This document shows positions 6,188 through 22,143 of a stretch of 23,072 nt of DNA, in pieces (within the stretch, counting starts at the first letter, position 1; the number at the start of each line of letters is the position of its first letter). Both the position numbers and the translations under genes were made by a program. The notes beneath the pieces are model-generated. The model made no database searches, was not told the origin of the DNA, and worked only from the letters and a program-made list of their open reading frames with translations. The stretch comes from an uncultured virus (IMG/VR IMGVR_UViG_3300023179_000063) (lineage: Duplodnaviria; Heunggongvirae; Uroviricota; Caudoviricetes; Crassvirales): the IMG/VR virus record IMGVR_UViG_3300023179_000063, one strand, 5' to 3'.

Positions 6188-6642
6188 ATATTATTTACTC
6201 CCATAAATAAACTTTCTAACCATTGATTTAATTCTTTAGATGTAGGTTTAATTAAATGTTTACATTCTCTTATGTCTATATTGTGGTGATATTTAACATA
6301 ACCTCCTGCATTACCTTTTTTAGCTCCAATTCGGAGGTCTAACCCGTATTTTGTACTTGTATTAAGTAATATTTTATCTCCTGTATATAATAACCAATAA
6401 TGAGCACCTCCAGATTTAGTATTATAATGAAATGTGTAATTCATTTCTTTTAATTCTTCTTCAGGAATATTATCAAAACCGTTTTTACCGTTTTTAACAT
6501 CTACATCTAATATTATATACTTATCTGAAGGACATACAGCTAGTGCATATCCTTCAGGTACTTCTCCTTCAAAATAGGTTTCATCAGGTATCATTCCCCA
6601 TTTAACAATAGGTGTATTATTTTTAAGGAGGAAACTTTTCAT
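6184..6642 (-). CDS. Prim-Pol (archaeo-eukaryotic primase superfamily) catalytic domain
   Basis: IILDVDVK (DxD), TKSGGAHYW (TxSGGxH), GLDLR..GGYV. Confidence 0.85.
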   Translation of the reverse strand: MKSFLLKNNTPIVKWGMIPDETYFEGEVPEGYALAVCPSDKYIILDVDVKNGKNGFDNIPEEELKEMNYTFHYNTKSGGAHYWLLYTGDKILLNTSTKYGLDLRIGAKKGNAGGYVKYHHNIDIRECKHLIKPTSKELNQWLESLFMGVNNI

Positions 6643-6644
6643 AA

Positions 6645-6905
6645 TTAAAACTTATATTTATTCTTTGCTTCAGGTGTTGACCAATAATTTTTATAATTTC
6701 TATTAGCACAATATTGCCACAACCTATCTAATTCTTCTTGAATAAAATAATCATCATCTATTTCTTTTTCCAACTCTGTTTCTACATCTTCTAAATCTAA
6801 ACCTAAATGTTGACTAAATCCGATGATTATTGTTACTGTTGAGTTACGGTTACCATAATCAAATGATAGTTCATTTTCATCAATAAATTTTCTTAATCTG
6901 TTCAT
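6645..6905 (-). CDS. Small protein, possibly a primase C-terminal (PriCT-like) helical domain
   Basis: GNRNS motif, helical; adjacent to the Prim-Pol gene. Confidence 0.45.
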   Translation of the reverse strand: MNRLRKFIDENELSFDYGNRNSTVTIIIGFSQHLGLDLEDVETELEKEIDDDYFIQEELDRLWQYCANRNYKNYWSTPEAKNKYKF

Positions 6906-7765
6906 ATTTTATATTTCCATTTATATTCTCCTGTTTTTTTTCGTTTTCCAGTGCAAACAGAAGAAATGTTTTTATTATTTAATTTTAATTGCCTTGAAGC
7001 TTCCATTACACTACACCATTCCTTTATAAAATTACCATCTAAATCATATTGTAAAACAATTTTAGAATTAACTTTAATAAGTTTTTGTTTATTAGATTCT
7101 GACATTTTTAATCTATTACTATTTTTACTCATTTTCAATTTTGTTTCTTCAGATAATTTTTTACCTTTATTTGCTATAGATAATTTTAATCTAGTTTCTG
7201 AAGAAACTTTATGTCCTAAAAATCTTTTAGATAAATTTTCACAAAATTCTTTATTTCGTTTTTTACCTTTATTTTTTAAAGAAATTTGAAATTTAAGTTC
7301 TTCAGATCTGTTTTTAACTGCTTCTCCTATTTTTCTTTTTGTAATATCAGACATTGGTGGTCTTTTTTTATTAGAAATACTCATTTTTTGTTTAGATTCA
7401 TTAGACATCTTTCTTCCAATTTGCCAAGAAGACATTTTTTTTCTAGTTTCATCACTAACAAAATTATATTTATCTCCTAATTTAGGTAATTTACAATTTA
7501 AATTTTCAGGTTCTAATACATTAAATCCAAAACCTATTAAAGTTTCATATTTTAACATTTCTTCAATAGGACCTTCCCATATTATTTCAAATTTATGATT
7601 ATTGAAACCATGTTTATTAAAAGAATTATACAATTTAATTTGAGATTTTCCTAAAGTAGATTTATAATGTGTAATTCTTCTTTTAAAATTTATTGTAGAA
7701 CCAATGTAAATTTTATTACTAGGACTGGTGATCATGTAAATTATTCCATTTTTAATATTTGTCAT
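6902..7765 (-). CDS. Free-standing GIY-YIG homing endonuclease with NUMOD3-type repeats and C-terminal NUMOD1-type HTH
   Basis: GIIYMITSPSNKIYIGST..R..E; about six repeats like SDETRKKMS/SEETKLKMS; VLQYDLDGNFIKEW..EASRQL..ISSVC..YKWKY. Confidence 0.92.
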   Translation of the reverse strand: MTNIKNGIIYMITSPSNKIYIGSTINFKRRITHYKSTLGKSQIKLYNSFNKHGFNNHKFEIIWEGPIEEMLKYETLIGFGFNVLEPENLNCKLPKLGDKYNFVSDETRKKMSSWQIGRKMSNESKQKMSISNKKRPPMSDITKRKIGEAVKNRSEELKFQISLKNKGKKRNKEFCENLSKRFLGHKVSSETRLKLSIANKGKKLSEETKLKMSKNSNRLKMSESNKQKLIKVNSKIVLQYDLDGNFIKEWCSVMEASRQLKLNNKNISSVCTGKRKKTGEYKWKYKI

Positions 7766-7780
7766 ATTTTATATTTTTGA

Positions 7781-7812
7781 CAAATATAAAACATTAATTG
7801 CACAATGACAAA
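7781..7812 (-). promoter_or_regulatory. Bacteroidota housekeeping-sigma promoter for the GIY-YIG gene
   Basis: -33 TTTG (7812-7809), 20-nt spacer, -7 TATATTTG (7788-7781), 15 nt before the ATG. Confidence 0.7.
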
Positions 7813-7994
7813 TAAGGATTCTCACTAATCCACTGTTTAACTTCTTCTTCTGTCATACCTAAATTATCCCAATCTTTATGTGCTATTTTAGACCAAGTAT
7901 CTGAATTATTAGGTACAGATTTTTGTAATTGCTTTATATTTTGCAATTCTCTCATTAATTTTTCTAGTTCACTCATTATTTTAATTATTTTCAA
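7794..7994 (-). CDS. Hypothetical protein
   Basis: 66-aa ORF; true start may be the second Met (MSELEK). Confidence 0.6.
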   Translation of the reverse strand: MKIIKIMSELEKLMRELQNIKQLQKSVPNNSDTWSKIAHKDWDNLGMTEEEVKQWISENPYLSLCN

Positions 7995-8175
7995 TATTAG
8001 TTAATGTAAATACTTCTTGCCAATCATTTAAACAGCCTCTACATTCTACTTTTCTATAAATTTCTTTAGCAGAAGAATACTCAAATTCTTCTGCTGTTAA
8101 ATCCAAACTATTACATATAGGACAACAATCTGGATCTTCAAAATATTTATTTTTTATAATTTGTGTTATATCCAT
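7981..8175 (-). CDS. Small zinc-ribbon protein
   Basis: CPIC and CRGC..W pairs. Confidence 0.7.
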   Translation of the reverse strand: MDITQIIKNKYFEDPDCCPICNSLDLTAEEFEYSSAKEIYRKVECRGCLNDWQEVFTLTNIENN

Positions 8176-8915
8176 TATATAATTGTCTTTAATATAAACA
8201 TTTCTTCAGGACTCATTTTTAATGTTTTCTTCCATTCTAATAATATTTTTAATACAATTTCAAATTGTTGTATTGTATCATTATAATATTTAGTACCCTT
8301 TTCTGTTTTATAATAATTTTCAATTTTAATTGTTTCTTCTATTATTGATATATATTTATCAGTTACAGAAGTTAAATCAAAACCTCTATCAGTATATTTA
8401 ACTACTCTTTCAAATTGTCTTAGTAATCTTTTAACTGACCAGAAATCATCTTTTTTATAAAATACAGGATTGTGTTTATTCCAAGTACCGTCCATTCCTG
8501 TAGACTGTCTTAAAGAAATTGTTTGTTTTGTTTTAATATCATAAGCTGTTGTTATAATATCTAAATCAAAATTACTAATTACATCAAATATTGTTCTATT
8601 AAACTTTTTAAAAATAACATTAACATCTACTAATAAATTGTATTTAAATTTAATAGTAATTAAACCAATAGAATCTAAAGATGATTTATCATTTTTAATG
8701 TAATCATTAAACTTATGTTGTTCTAATGGGTCTAATATTTGAAACATTGGATTGTATTTCATAAAAAAGAGCAGCTCCGTAAAGCTGCTCTTAGTGTAAG
8801 TAAATACATCAATATCTTGTCCTTCAAAGTAATCAAGTAAACAAGAACCAGTTATACACCCGTCTATATCTTGCTCTTTAATTAAATTGATAGCATTATC
8901 AATGTGTTGCTTCAT
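8175..8915 (-). CDS. Pol-beta superfamily nucleotidyltransferase (CCA/poly(A) polymerase-like head)
   Basis: CITGSCLL...DIDVF (GS plus DxD), FDLDIITTAYD, R..KYTDRGF. Confidence 0.72.
   Translation of the reverse strand: MKQHIDNAINLIKEQDIDGCITGSCLLDYFEGQDIDVFTYTKSSFTELLFFMKYNPMFQILDPLEQHKFNDYIKNDKSSLDSIGLITIKFKYNLLVDVNVIFKKFNRTIFDVISNFDLDIITTAYDIKTKQTISLRQSTGMDGTWNKHNPVFYKKDDFWSVKRLLRQFERVVKYTDRGFDLTSVTDKYISIIEETIKIENYYKTEKGTKYYNDTIQQFEIVLKILLEWKKTLKMSPEEMFILKTII
8761..8792 (-). terminator. Terminator-like hairpin inside the nucleotidyltransferase gene
   Basis: AAGAGCAGCT-TTACGG-AGCTGCTCTT (10-bp perfect stem) followed by TTTT on the coding strand. Confidence 0.55.
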
Positions 8916-17142: not shown

Positions 17143-17774
17143 TTATAATATTATAAGTAAAGGTAATAATAAAGTAAAACAATACCTAATTGTATTCCAA
17201 TTAATTATTTTATCATGTAATTCTACAAAAGATTTTATAAAATCACTTTTTAAATTATGTTTATATCTAATATTTTTACCACCATATTGTGATATTTTAT
17301 CTTCTTGTATAGTAGGAACCCATAAATATTCTTCTTCACCAGTAATATTATTAGCTAAATTATATTTATGTTTATTTTCATTATGAGTAAGAAATATAAC
17401 TTCAGCTTTAACTACATCTTTATAATCAACATAATCATTAATCATTTTAAATAAATCTTCATATTCTTCTAGCCAATTACCTGCAACTATTACAGGACTA
17501 AAATTAATATGTACATCATAACCAGCATCTATAAAAGCATCAATAGCTTTAATCCTATCAATAATTTTAGATGTATTAGGTTCTAATTTATCAGACATAA
17601 TTTGAGGCATTAAACTAAATCTAATTCTAATTTTACCTTCAGGATTATAATCTAATAAATTTACATTAACATATTTAGTAGCAAAAGAACCCATAGCTAT
17701 AGGATGTTGTTTAAAGAAATCAAATATCTTTTTCCATTGATGATATTTTAAATGTAAAGCAAAATCTTCGTTAC
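17143..17774 (-). CDS. splB: Spore photoproduct lyase-like radical SAM protein, exon 2
   Basis: Frame continues upstream of the track ORF as NEDFALHLKYHQW; FATKYVN, RIRFSL, EPNTS..RIKAI, GYDVHINFSPVI, YGGKNIRY. Confidence 0.88.
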
Positions 17775-17942
17775 CATTTTGTTACCTTATAGGTTCTTTA
17801 TCCTATAAATCTACACTTTTTATTAAGTTATATGTGTAGTTCAGACTATATCATCATGTAAATTAATACATGCCCTGCACTCGTGTCACTTTACTATCTT
17901 CAGCTTTATCTGTTAAGATTCCATGTGTTAGTCGTTGAACCT

Positions 17943-18713
17943 TCAGTGTATTTCTACAAAGCTTGGCTGCTGATTGTCTGCTTCCAGAGTTTCCAGCAAT
18001 TCACAGGGTTTAACATCTTTAATAGATGTGGCCATAATTTCTATTACTTTATTTTTATTAATACAATTATTAAAAGCTTCTGTATATCCTCCAAATTTAG
18101 GTCCTATATATTTATTATTTTTAAACATATTAATAATATATTGTTCTAAATAATAAGCTTTATATAGTGGTAAATTTAAAACATTTAAAACTTCTACTGC
18201 TAAAGAACCAAATCTTGATTTTATATATCTTCCTTTATAAAGACCTATTTTATAAGCATTTACTGTTGGTAAATAAACAAAATATAATTTATAAGGTGTA
18301 TGTGGTGTTCTTAAAACTGTTGTTTTATTTATACCCTTATTATCTTTATAAAAGTTGTTACATATACCGCATTTGTAAATATCATGCAATCTTCTATTGT
18401 ATAATGTATTACAATTATTACATTTATATTTGATACATGTTAAATAGTTTACATATAGAGATAATGCTGTAAAATTATATTTTAAACATAATTTTTTAAG
18501 TCTAAATTCATGATAAGATGTTGTATTTCTAGTAGGAATTTTATTTCTTTGTCTAAGTCCACTCCAAGTTGCTTTTGTTAAAAAACCTGAAGTTTTGTGT
18601 TTAAACAAAAGATAAGTTTTTGCATCTTTATATTCATTTATCCATTCAAAATCTTGATTATCAGCAATTTGCTTAATTGTATTAATAATTTCTTCTTTAG
18701 TAAAATTTTTCAT
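17943..18713 (-). CDS. Intron-encoded putative homing endonuclease: N-terminal repeats/zinc ribbon, C-terminal GIY-YIG-like (T5orf172-type) domain
   Basis: CNNC/CGIC; LYFV..YKIG..R..LEQ..GYTEAF; ATG at 18713 preferred over TTG at 18719, which lies inside the promoter box. Confidence 0.75.
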   Translation of the reverse strand: MKNFTKEEIINTIKQIADNQDFEWINEYKDAKTYLLFKHKTSGFLTKATWSGLRQRNKIPTRNTTSYHEFRLKKLCLKYNFTALSLYVNYLTCIKYKCNNCNTLYNRRLHDIYKCGICNNFYKDNKGINKTTVLRTPHTPYKLYFVYLPTVNAYKIGLYKGRYIKSRFGSLAVEVLNVLNLPLYKAYYLEQYIINMFKNNKYIGPKFGGYTEAFNNCINKNKVIEIMATSIKDVKPCELLETLEADNQQPSFVEIH

Positions 18714-18716
18714 ATA

Positions 18717-18747
18717 CAAATATAATAAATTTTTACATAAAGGTCAA
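18717..18747 (-). promoter_or_regulatory. Intron-internal Bacteroidota-type promoter
   Basis: TTG (18747-18745), 20-nt spacer, TATATTTG (18724-18717), 3 nt before ATG. Confidence 0.68.
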
Positions 18748-18768
18748 GTGTAATAGTGACATTTATTT

Positions 18769-19024
18769 AGCCAATATCATAAGTTATAAACTTTTCATGT
18801 GTTTGATTAGGTTTATCTACATTTGTAAAATAAGAATGGTTATTAATAGCTGTAAGAATATCTTCTGTATTAGTAGCTATTGATAACCCTTCATATTTAT
18901 TTCTTTTCATATAACAATAAGAACAATTAAACATACAACCATGTCCAAAACTAGGACTAATAAAATCTGTACTTCTACCTGATGGTCTAATAAGCATAGA
19001 TTTTCTTATAACTTTTTCAATCAT
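18769..19024 (-). CDS. splB: Spore photoproduct lyase-like radical SAM protein, exon 1
   Basis: GCMFNCSYCY radical SAM CxxxCxxC; ends YDIG plus first base of the Cys codon. Confidence 0.88.
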
Positions 19025-21730: not shown

Positions 21731-21787
21731 AACCCTTAATTTAAACAATTTATTATGAAATTTCCTATTATGCAGAATAGGTTTTTG

Positions 21788-22143
21788 TGGAGCATAGGGG
21801 AGTCGAACCCCTGTCCAGTTAGCTGCTGAATAACAACTTAACTACGAATAATAGATTATTTATTTCTTCTATAAAAGAAAGGGCTGACCGATAAAAGTCA
21901 ACTATCACCAATTAGTTTTAAGTTCTAATAAACTTAGCTTATTACTAAGCTGCAATCAACATTTCTTCTTCTTGTCTAATTAAGTTGAAGATTTTTGCTT
22001 CTACTGCATCAGCAAAATTCCTAGAATTTTCTGATATTGTATTTGTTTTGTCGTTTATTTTTTGATATACATTTACAAGTATAATATCATCCTTGTCGTA
22101 ATTGTTATTTGGCTGAACACTCCTGTCAATACCTAGATGCCCC
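21788..22143 (-). ncRNA. ssrA: tmRNA (transfer-messenger RNA), CCA end not encoded
   Basis: Acceptor GGGGCAT/ATGCTCC with G3-U wobble and discriminator A; GGTATTGAC D-loop analogue; T arm AGGGG-TTCGACT-CCCCT after GGAC; helix 2 AATAACAA/TTGTTATT; pseudoknot 1; tag frame ending LIAA TAG TAA TAA; 356 nt. Confidence 0.95.

Follow-up and report, generated by a model that had tools for sequence, protein, structure and literature searches.

Group I introns of subgroup IA, marked by the extra helices P7.1 and P7.2 between P7 and P3′, are classically known from phages, among them the td, nrdB and nrdD genes of T4, SPO1 and Staphylococcus phages. The 5′ splice site of a group I intron is defined by a U.G wobble pair in helix P1, and in T4 the intron open reading frames (ORFs) sit in P6a or P9. 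Here we describe an insert in a 23,072-nucleotide stretch of DNA from an uncultured virus (IMG/VR record IMGVR_UViG_3300023179_000063; the whole stretch is called the window below), located within a gene for a radical S-adenosylmethionine (SAM) enzyme that resembles spore photoproduct lyase (SPL). The evidence makes us confident that the insert is a mobile group I intron interrupting the SPL-like gene in the replication module of an uncultured freshwater phage. Its boundaries are exact, its core covaries, its guide sequence is complementary to the two exon ends and changes in step with the exon, its ORF is conserved and intact, and the gene occurs both with and without it.

In the spore photoproduct (SP) lyase of G. 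thermodenitrificans, according to the available text of Benjdia et al. (2012, PMC3467042), Cys140 is the equivalent of B. subtilis Cys141, the hydrogen-atom donor; Tyr98 is the likely relay, Tyr96, Lys174 and Ser195 contact SAM, and Clostridium has alanine at the position of Cys140. Inteins in SplB (COG1533) of Actinobacteria are on record in the accessible part of Novikova et al. (2016, PMC4760082). Genes for T5orf172 endonucleases are treated as free-standing in the excerpts of Barth et al. (2023, PMC10448857), where the one in ICP1 adjoins the terminase intron and does not lie inside it.

The insert in the SPL-like gene and its ribozyme

Exon 1 ends in ...TAT GAT ATT GGC T, with the last T at 18769, and the following AA (18768-18767) completes a TAA codon (18769-18767) at which the unspliced frame ends immediately; the ORF listing gives this part as an 85-aa ORF at 18767..19024. 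The 3′ end of the insert reads ...AAAATG, with G at 17775, and exon 2 begins with GT AAC GAA GAT at 17774 and remains open until its stop codon (17145-17143). When the exons were joined in silico (19024-18769 with 17774-17143), they gave 888 nt, encoding 295 aa and a stop, and the joined protein reads TYDIG-C-NEDFALH with the junction cysteine as residue 86. Exon 1 encodes CMFNCSYCY, a CxxxCxxC cluster motif with two tyrosines, and the insertion point lies between the first and second bases of the codon for a conserved fourth cysteine. An earlier sequence-only reading of this DNA had given the intron the same extent and the same exon ends, with a TGT cysteine codon, YDIG-C-NEDF in a 295-aa protein and an immediate TAA stop in the unspliced frame, and coordinate joining and the sequence itself agreed with it exactly.

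A homologue search with exon 2 alone (E<=0.001) returned 4460 proteins, and the best 120 of the 4460 were compared. These homologues are uninterrupted, 77-96% identical and 196-298 aa long (most 275-298); exon 2 is 96% identical to one of them, the intron-less P0001. The joined protein aligned with the 120 without any gap across the junction, exon 1 falling on residues 1-85, and the junction column held cysteine in 119 of them and a gap in the remaining one, as the sequence-only reading had expected of intron-less homologues. The block around the junction was almost invariant (T-Y-D-I-[SG]-C-N-[ES]-D-[FM]-A-L-H). Since the joined protein aligns gap-free with 120 uninterrupted homologues, the junction is more than chance. 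The gene was also uninterrupted in 80 of the 80 IMG/VR loci examined, out of 446 confirmed relatives.

Searching for the start of exon 2 preceded by G (G+GTAAYGARGAYTTYGCNYTNCAY) yielded 3 IMG/VR and 10 metagenome loci. Eight of these 13 hold SPL exon 2 behind the same intron (L083 and L086 being one contig), and the other five were discarded as unrelated chance matches. Four loci contain the whole intron, 984-989 nt long, together with exon 1 and the same ORF; they lie at the same site in diverged alleles, whose exons and intron taken together are 71-76% identical to the window in nucleotides. The T-preceded, intron-less form of the pattern was present at at least 120 IMG/VR loci, against 3 for the G-preceded form, so that intron-bearing alleles make up at most a few percent in IMG/VR.

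Logan contigs of four DNA runs were then compared with the region. In two contigs of run X4, 17774 abuts 18774 with 5 replaced letters and the sequence reads ATA TCT T-GT or ATA TCA T-GT (Ile-Ser-Cys; the hyphen marks the joint), and two contigs of run X5 join 17774 to 18797, with 28 replaced letters. Natural intron-less alleles therefore break off and resume exactly at the predicted splice sites. Other contigs of runs X3 and X4 carry the intron, and both kinds of allele coexist in X4.

Rfam model RF00028 matched 18069-17833(-) over its full length (model 1-253 of 253) with 61.0 bits against a gathering score of 50 (E 1e-14), which answers the covariance-model check that the sequence-only reading had proposed for a group I intron. 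A structure built by hand, comprising P1, P10, P2-P9.1 and the P3/P7 pseudoknot, was counted on seven copies, five of them full-length (the window and the four loci above) and two cut by contig ends. Standard pairs occupied 95.8% of 450 cells, and both sides had changed at 15 of 74 pairs. None of 500 shuffles reached the observed pairing and compensation, and partners slid by 1-3 columns gave 0-2 compensated pairs and 29-46% pairing. Because the hand-built structure was derived from the counted sequences, RNAalifold was run on a separate alignment of seven sequences (four introns from SPL genes, two dUTPase introns of crAss-like phages and an intron of a Staphylococcus phage). It recovered P2-P6, P7.1, P7.2, P8, P9 and P9.1, with 34 of 60 pairs compensated in at least one sequence. 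P7, which takes part in the pseudoknot and cannot be drawn there, is invariant across copies and thus gives no covariation information either way. Two compensated pairs were found in each of P7.1 and P7.2, which lie between P7 and P3′, and by these helices the intron resembles subgroup IA as defined above. The last intron base was G in all seven aligned copies.

The internal guide sequence, read from the sequence directly before P2, connects this core to the exons (Table 1). Its GGCCA portion (18033-18029) pairs with UUGGCU of exon 1 to form P1, including the wobble U18769.G18033, and its UUAU portion (18037-18034) pairs with GUAA of exon 2 (17774-17771) to form P10. The U18769.G18033 pair and P1 position -2 are kept in all five full-length copies. 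In the other four the exon reads TCC T (Ser-Cys), compared with GGC T (Gly-Cys) in the window, and the guide is GGGUG; position -3 is thus G-C in the window and C-G in the four others, a compensatory change that follows the Gly/Ser codon. A short P1 hairpin within the first ~60 nt of the intron was considered and rejected, as no guide (5′-GG followed by two pyrimidines) occurs there, and the guide at 18033 was favoured. This guide is located ~735 nt downstream of the 5′ splice site, and the intron ORF therefore fills the P1 loop. All in all, the group I intron claimed by the sequence-only reading is supported by the RF00028 match, the covarying pairs, the U.G pair together with the terminal omega-G, and the intron-less joints at T-GT.

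Table 1. Coordinates of the exons, the intron and its parts in the window
Feature	Coordinates	Strand	Remarks
Exon 1 of SPL-like radical SAM gene	18769..19024	-	85 codons + T of Cys codon; ATG at 19024
Group I intron	17775..18768	-	994 nt; A18768 first base, G17775 last (omega-G)
Exon 2 of SPL-like gene	17143..17774	-	GT of Cys codon, then 209 codons + stop
Intron ORF, putative homing endonuclease	17943..18713	-	256 aa + stop (17945-17943); in P1 loop
Internal guide sequence 5′-UUAU-GGCCA-3′	18029..18037	-	read from sequence; directly before P2
Ribozyme core	17787..18028	-	hand-drawn structure + RNAalifold
P2	18028-18014	-	
P3	18008-18003 with 17878-17873	-	
P4	17998-94 with 17972-68	-	
P5	17988-77	-	
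P6/P6a	17966-17940	-	
P7	17933-29 with 17848-44	-	P3/P7 pseudoknot
P7.2	17928-25 with 17889-86	-	
P7.1	17919-17896	-	
P8	17872-55	-	
P9	17839-11	-	
P9.1	17808-17787	-	

According to this structure, the intron would fold in the transcript with the whole endonuclease ORF forming the P1 loop. Exogenous guanosine would attack after U18769, omega-G17775 would direct exon ligation, and ligation would create the UGU codon of a 295-aa enzyme with YDIG-C-NEDF.

Several observations weigh against this interpretation. The RF00028 match appeared only in a 1.3-kb search with permissive filters; both whole-window Rfam scans missed the intron, which was lost to filters, and returned a tmRNA-like match only. 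The structure was drawn by eye from the same sequences, which favours it over the slid controls. P1 is short, with 5 pairs in the window; its position -4 pairs in the window only (U-U in the other four full copies) and its position -5 in two of those four, and P10 is weaker in L088, with 3 of 4 pairs. The P1 loop, which may fold unaided, is long at ~735 nt. Near-identical DNA was found in 20 lake or freshwater metagenome runs from 12 studies, two of which may be the source, and none of the 23 listed runs with this sequence is recorded as RNA; splicing itself is therefore a matter of inference.

The absence of RNA runs from those listed, the failure of the default Rfam filters and the short P1 would suit a decaying or non-splicing remnant, the gene then being a pseudogene or encoding two polypeptides (the 85-aa exon-1 ORF and a 183-aa ORF from an ATG at 17694). 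The two pieces are called as separate ORFs, and exon-1-like fragments exist as called proteins in public collections. We consider a remnant highly improbable, given that all core helices are intact, with compensatory pairing across copies whose exons are 51-79% identical, that the guide tracks the exon codon change, that the frames of the two exons and of the intron ORF stay open in each of the five full copies, and that a two-piece product would be without the catalytic cysteine and ~26 conserved residues.

Four called proteins (P0261, P0243, P0286 and P0242) match SPL residues 1 to ~80-85 and then diverge. P0243 does so after ...KFI and P0286 after ...TYDF, and P0261 runs on into NUMOD3-like repeats. 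The same few codons may be the target of further insertions, perhaps of other introns or other endonuclease genes.

The ORF in the P1 loop and the distribution of the intron

The ATG of the intron ORF (18713) lies 56 nt past the 5′ splice site and is conserved in all five full-length copies. Its last ~35 codons coincide with the guide, P2, P3, P4, P5 and most of P6, and its stop codon falls inside P6. PHROG searches matched the ORF to phrog_681 'endonuclease' (E 5.2e-14) and phrog_559 'HNH endonuclease' (E 2.3e-6). Across 29 homologues, down to 35% identity, residues Y144, K155, G157, R167 and E190 are invariant, and the longer pattern Y144, Y154-K-I-G157, R167 and E190 is invariant or nearly so in the same 29 sequences. 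We take Y144...YKIG157, R167 and E190 to be the GIY...YIG, Arg, Glu pattern, with catalytic roles as in GIY-YIG enzymes.

An AlphaFold model based on the 29 homologues (mean pLDDT 86.6) showed two repeated helix/beta-sheet modules followed by a beta-beta-alpha-beta-alpha domain, with conserved cysteine pairs in the second module and in the linker after it. Among the predicted viral structures of BFVD, 191 matched the model at E<=0.001, with T5orf172, CapR-homology, treble-clef and Hef-like homing endonucleases at the top (the best with E 5.7e-14), and the ESM Atlas neighbours of the ORF were DUF723/T5orf172 clusters at 0.95. Other searches argued the opposite way. The Pfam families PF10544, PF13455 and PF01541 (T5orf172/GIY-YIG) matched none of the five intron ORFs even at E<=10, the Pfam DUF723 model did not score the ORF, NCBIfam gave no nuclease family for it, and none of its 37 homologue clusters carries a Pfam domain. 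Foldseek found no match to the PDB at E<=0.001 for the endonuclease model, and matches of its C-terminal domain (residues 131-233) to solved structures were weak (Slx1, Z 4.2; HIGLE, Z 4.0). Taken together, the ORF product resembles T5orf172/CapR-type homing endonucleases in its predicted fold and domain order, and not by a sequence-family match. It would consist of two CapR/DUF723-like zinc-finger modules and a T5orf172 nuclease domain of the GIY-YIG superfamily, would cut intron-less alleles at the stretch encoding T-Y-D-I-S/G-C-N-E-D-F, and repair would then copy the intron in, that is, homing.

Allele relatedness was assessed by nearest-neighbour BLASTP. The window, L092 and L085 have intron-less relatives, with 96, 98 and 89% exon-2 identity respectively, and the intron-bearing alleles are mutually 51-79% identical at the amino acid level. 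This patchy distribution fits homing, repeated loss, or both. Because intron and exon divergence are similar (ORF 60-64% at the amino acid level, intron plus exons 71-76% at the nucleotide level, about as diverged as the exon-encoded protein), no recent transfer is visible. This would be in keeping with an intron that is only inherited vertically, its ORF no longer an active homing endonuclease and its patchiness due to repeated precise loss. We judge such a history unlikely, as the ORF is intact in every full copy, its putative catalytic residues are invariant among the 29 homologues, and alleles with and without the intron coexist in run X4.

One further locus, L087:1980-2141 (-), holds the SPL intron core and exon 2, but ahead of P2 it shows no relation to the endonuclease ORF and has a higher G+C content. 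This metagenome contig, whose start looks to us like a random-amplification primer, may be chimeric, or may be a variant with different P1-loop content.

The interrupted SPL-like protein

Exon 2 matched Pfam SPL (PF20903) with 65.3 bits, the cut-off being 27 (E 5.8e-18, profile 149-336). Exon 1 scored 18.9 bits (E 0.00078), below the cut-off, over profile positions 64-131, which adjoin the part covered by exon 2, and PF20903 is annotated in all 120 listed homologues. Exon 2 matched the SP lyase structure 4fhc in the PDB (E 8.4e-8), and a profile of 21 homologues matched the same G. thermodenitrificans enzyme with E 2.1e-13. In the profile alignment the junction cysteine aligned, with high posterior probability, to the cysteine of FEAACTSDIV, chain residue 167 of 4fhc. 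The motif CMGHCHYC, found at chain residue 117, begins at native residue 90 according to an excerpt of PMC8989533; the offset is thus 27 and chain residue 167 is native Cys140. The proposal of the sequence-only reading that Cys86 is the equivalent of SplB Cys141 gains support from this alignment. C30, C34, C37, Y36 and Y38 are all present, CSYCY retaining both SP-lyase tyrosines (Tyr96/Tyr98), and the equivalents of Lys174 and Ser195 are present and invariant. For the SPL-like protein, an alignment of 21 close homologues yielded an AlphaFold model of low quality (mean pLDDT 53, below 50 in the N-terminal half), which was not used.

On this sequence evidence the host protein most likely acts in the manner of an SP lyase, in what is presumably a phage of non-spore-formers. 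Its [4Fe-4S] cluster and SAM would generate a 5′-deoxyadenosyl (5′-dA) radical that acts on a DNA lesion derived from thymine, and the hydrogen atom would be returned by Cys86 with Tyr38 behind it.

Two results speak against so direct an equation with SP lyase. P0001, the intron-less homologue 96% identical over exon 2, on which the NCBIfam test was run, misses the equivalog cut-offs of both TIGR03886 'SPL family protein' (289.9 against 437.55) and TIGR04070 'spore photoproduct lyase' (76.9 against 400). Because both were missed we class the protein as SPL-like, the term used in the sequence-only reading, and not as a certified SplB. Secondly, of 63 full-length sequences that represent more distant clusters (from the best 150 of 638), 35 have cysteine in the junction column, the others including Glu (11), Asn (5) and Tyr (4), and the cluster cysteines are kept in 60-63 of the 63.

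These two results, and a score far better on TIGR03886 than on TIGR04070, would be expected if the intron splices and the host enzyme acts on another thymine-derived DNA substrate, for example in hypermodification, the role of the cysteine being different or analogous. A precedent is gp53 of Pseudomonas phage M6, an SPL-like radical SAM DNA-modifying isomerase that models on SP lyase 4fhe, as stated in the available portion of PMC8989533. The nearest cellular SPL-like genes, 44-46% identical, belong to non-spore-forming Bacteroidota (Cytophagales, Pontibacter, Sphingobacteriaceae), which points the same way. Conversely, a scan of 37 window ORFs turned up no partner genes for thymidine hypermodification (kinase, aminoacyl-transfer enzyme or PLP decarboxylase), and CSYCY and the equivalents of Cys140 and Lys174/Ser195 are kept, unlike in M6 gp53, which has CTVGCAFC. 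We regard a different substrate as possible, if somewhat doubtful, and SP-lyase-like action as the better account of the host protein.

In the literature text available to us, no SPL gene was found described as intron-bearing, and to this extent only the view of the sequence-only reading that this is an unusual host gene holds. That view is tempered by the occurrence of this ribozyme type in many phage genes (see below) and by the SplB inteins noted above (PMC4760082, in the part accessible). Selfish elements in such genes are thus not unprecedented. Three of the 120 SPL homologues (P0014, P0037 and P0076) carry the Pfam PF14890 (intein splicing) label in spite of a normal length of 288-289 aa.

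Phage context and comparison with described systems

The window is a phage replication module with a G+C content of 25%. On its minus strand lie the genes for DNA polymerase A, a primase, a DnaB-like helicase, RecT, an SNF2/DEAD helicase, an AAA ATPase, a muramidase-like protein and a free-standing endonuclease described below. Among GenBank phages no close relative of the window was found, and the SPL-like protein gave a single distant tblastn match. A 5-kb contig binned with a Bacteroidetes metagenome-assembled genome carries an SPL-like gene 72% identical to that of the window. The nearest cellular SPL-like genes and the crAss-like ribozyme give a weak hint that the host may belong to the Bacteroidota.

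Elsewhere in the window, 21785-22143 (-) holds a tmRNA-like gene (Rfam RF00023 over the full model, 56.7 bits against a gathering score of 47, E 5.2e-20); ARAGORN, despite this match, reported neither a tmRNA nor a tRNA in the whole window. At 6905-7765 (-) lies a free-standing gene for a homing endonuclease of the GIY-YIG/NUMOD3/I-HmuI-like kind, which is followed by ~410 nt (7766-8177) without an ORF of at least 70 aa. A second intron near this gene was considered and rejected, Rfam being empty on 6400-8400 and the core motifs occurring in the whole window only at the SPL intron.

The core motifs AAGGTTCAACGACTA...GATGATATAGTC were found together at at least 122 IMG/VR places. Host genes were surveyed on 78 distinct downstream ORFs from the first 80 of these loci. 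They include genes for capsid, AAA_24 ATPase, DNA polymerases A and B, gp32, DnaB, ThyX and PhoH and tail genes, and SPL (PF20903) accounts for none of the 78. At L286:1682-2716 (+) a radical SAM ORF of another kind closely follows the core motifs; it matches Pfam Radical_SAM with E 1.2e-7 and, below the cut-off, the NCBIfam twitch-domain rSAM model with E 1.2e-6, and it has no similarity to the SPL-like protein. The ORF downstream of the core match at L288:1702-3009 (+) is not a typical phage gene but IS605 OrfB/TnpB-like (HTH_OrfB_IS605, OrfB_IS605, Cas12f1-like TNB), and one IMG/VR contig of 7 kb (L233/L234) has two core signatures ~1 kb apart.

The closest described relatives of the ribozyme are crAss-like. 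Over 18013-17780 (~234 nt) the core is 76-78% identical to the annotated intron of the dUTPase gene of crAssphage (Carjivirus communis, BK010471) and 70% identical to the dUTPase intron of cr50_1. The crAssphage intron encodes gp35, annotated as 'intron-encoded HNH endonuclease', and in crAssphage and cr50_1, as in the window, the endonuclease ORF lies ahead of the core and runs on into it. The window ORF and gp35 share a core-encoded tail, ELLET..DNQQPS. These tails, ...ELLETLEADNQQPSF in the window (17946-18050 (-)) and ...ELLETHNDNDNQQPSI in gp35 (L094:2560-2676), are alike in otherwise unrelated endonucleases, for it is the conserved ribozyme core, read in one frame, that encodes both. The crAssphage intron differs in its host gene (dUTPase, not SPL-like), in its ORF body, which is unrelated (BLASTP aligns the C-terminal region only, the tail alone being clearly shared) and annotated as HNH where that of the window is T5orf172-like, and in lineage and habitat, human gut Crassvirales as opposed to lake and freshwater metagenomes. 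With unrelated ORF bodies on similar cores, a single ribozyme chassis thus has different endonuclease genes in one and the same position.

A wider proposal joins these points, and we offer it only tentatively. The intron ORF may be a true intron-borne T5orf172/CapR homing endonuclease, of a class so far described as free-standing in the sources available in part, situated in the P1 loop of a chassis that in crAssphage also carries an unrelated HNH gene, so that endonuclease cassettes would be swapped within one ribozyme. Its host gene would belong to a very widespread phage family (4460 protein clusters, at least 446 IMG/VR loci) whose members would be radical SAM lyases that work without light and mend damage of the spore-photoproduct type in the densely packed capsid DNA of aquatic phages.

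Compared with the literature text available, what is new at this locus is the SPL-like host gene, together with the placement in the catalytic cysteine codon with exon-guide covariation and a P1 loop that contains a T5orf172-like endonuclease. The locus adds a radical SAM DNA-lyase gene to the hosts of phage group I introns, and it offers a clear natural example of a catalytic codon split by an intron whose guide covaries with a Gly/Ser change in the exon. It also points to a T5orf172-like endonuclease acting from inside an intron and to one ribozyme chassis with different endonuclease genes. Gene callers split the SPL-like gene into two apparently truncated ORFs and long-contig Rfam scans overlook the intron, and too few SPL-like genes may therefore be called in viromes. 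The locus draws attention to an abundant, little-studied SPL-like family of aquatic phages.

Like the SplB/COG1533 inteins (PMC4760082, in the part accessible), the intron is a homing-type selfish element in an 'SplB' radical SAM DNA-repair gene; the inteins differ in being spliced at the protein level, and COG1533 need not be the same family as PF20903. With the T5orf172/CapR phage homing endonucleases, the ORF product shares, in its predicted structure, repeated zinc-finger DNA-binding modules followed by a GIY-YIG-like nuclease domain; those are free-standing genes in the available text of PMC10448857, whereas the window ORF lies inside an intron. The host protein has in common with SplB of B. 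subtilis and G. thermodenitrificans (4FHC-4FHG) the Pfam SPL family, CxxxCxYCY, the fourth cysteine and the Lys174/Ser195 equivalents. It differs in length (~295 against ~340 aa), being without the N-terminal ~60 profile residues, in scoring below the TIGR04070 cut-off, in being phage-encoded and in having its nearest cellular relatives in non-spore-forming Bacteroidota.

With the classic phage IA introns, finally, the SPL intron shares a group I ribozyme with P7.1/P7.2, a position in a conserved coding stretch of a DNA-metabolism gene and a homing endonuclease gene, and an intron of Staphylococcus phage PT1-1 was itself matched by the ribozyme. It is set apart from them by the type of its ORF, by the family of its host gene and by the location of the ORF, which occupies the P1 loop and not P6a or P9.

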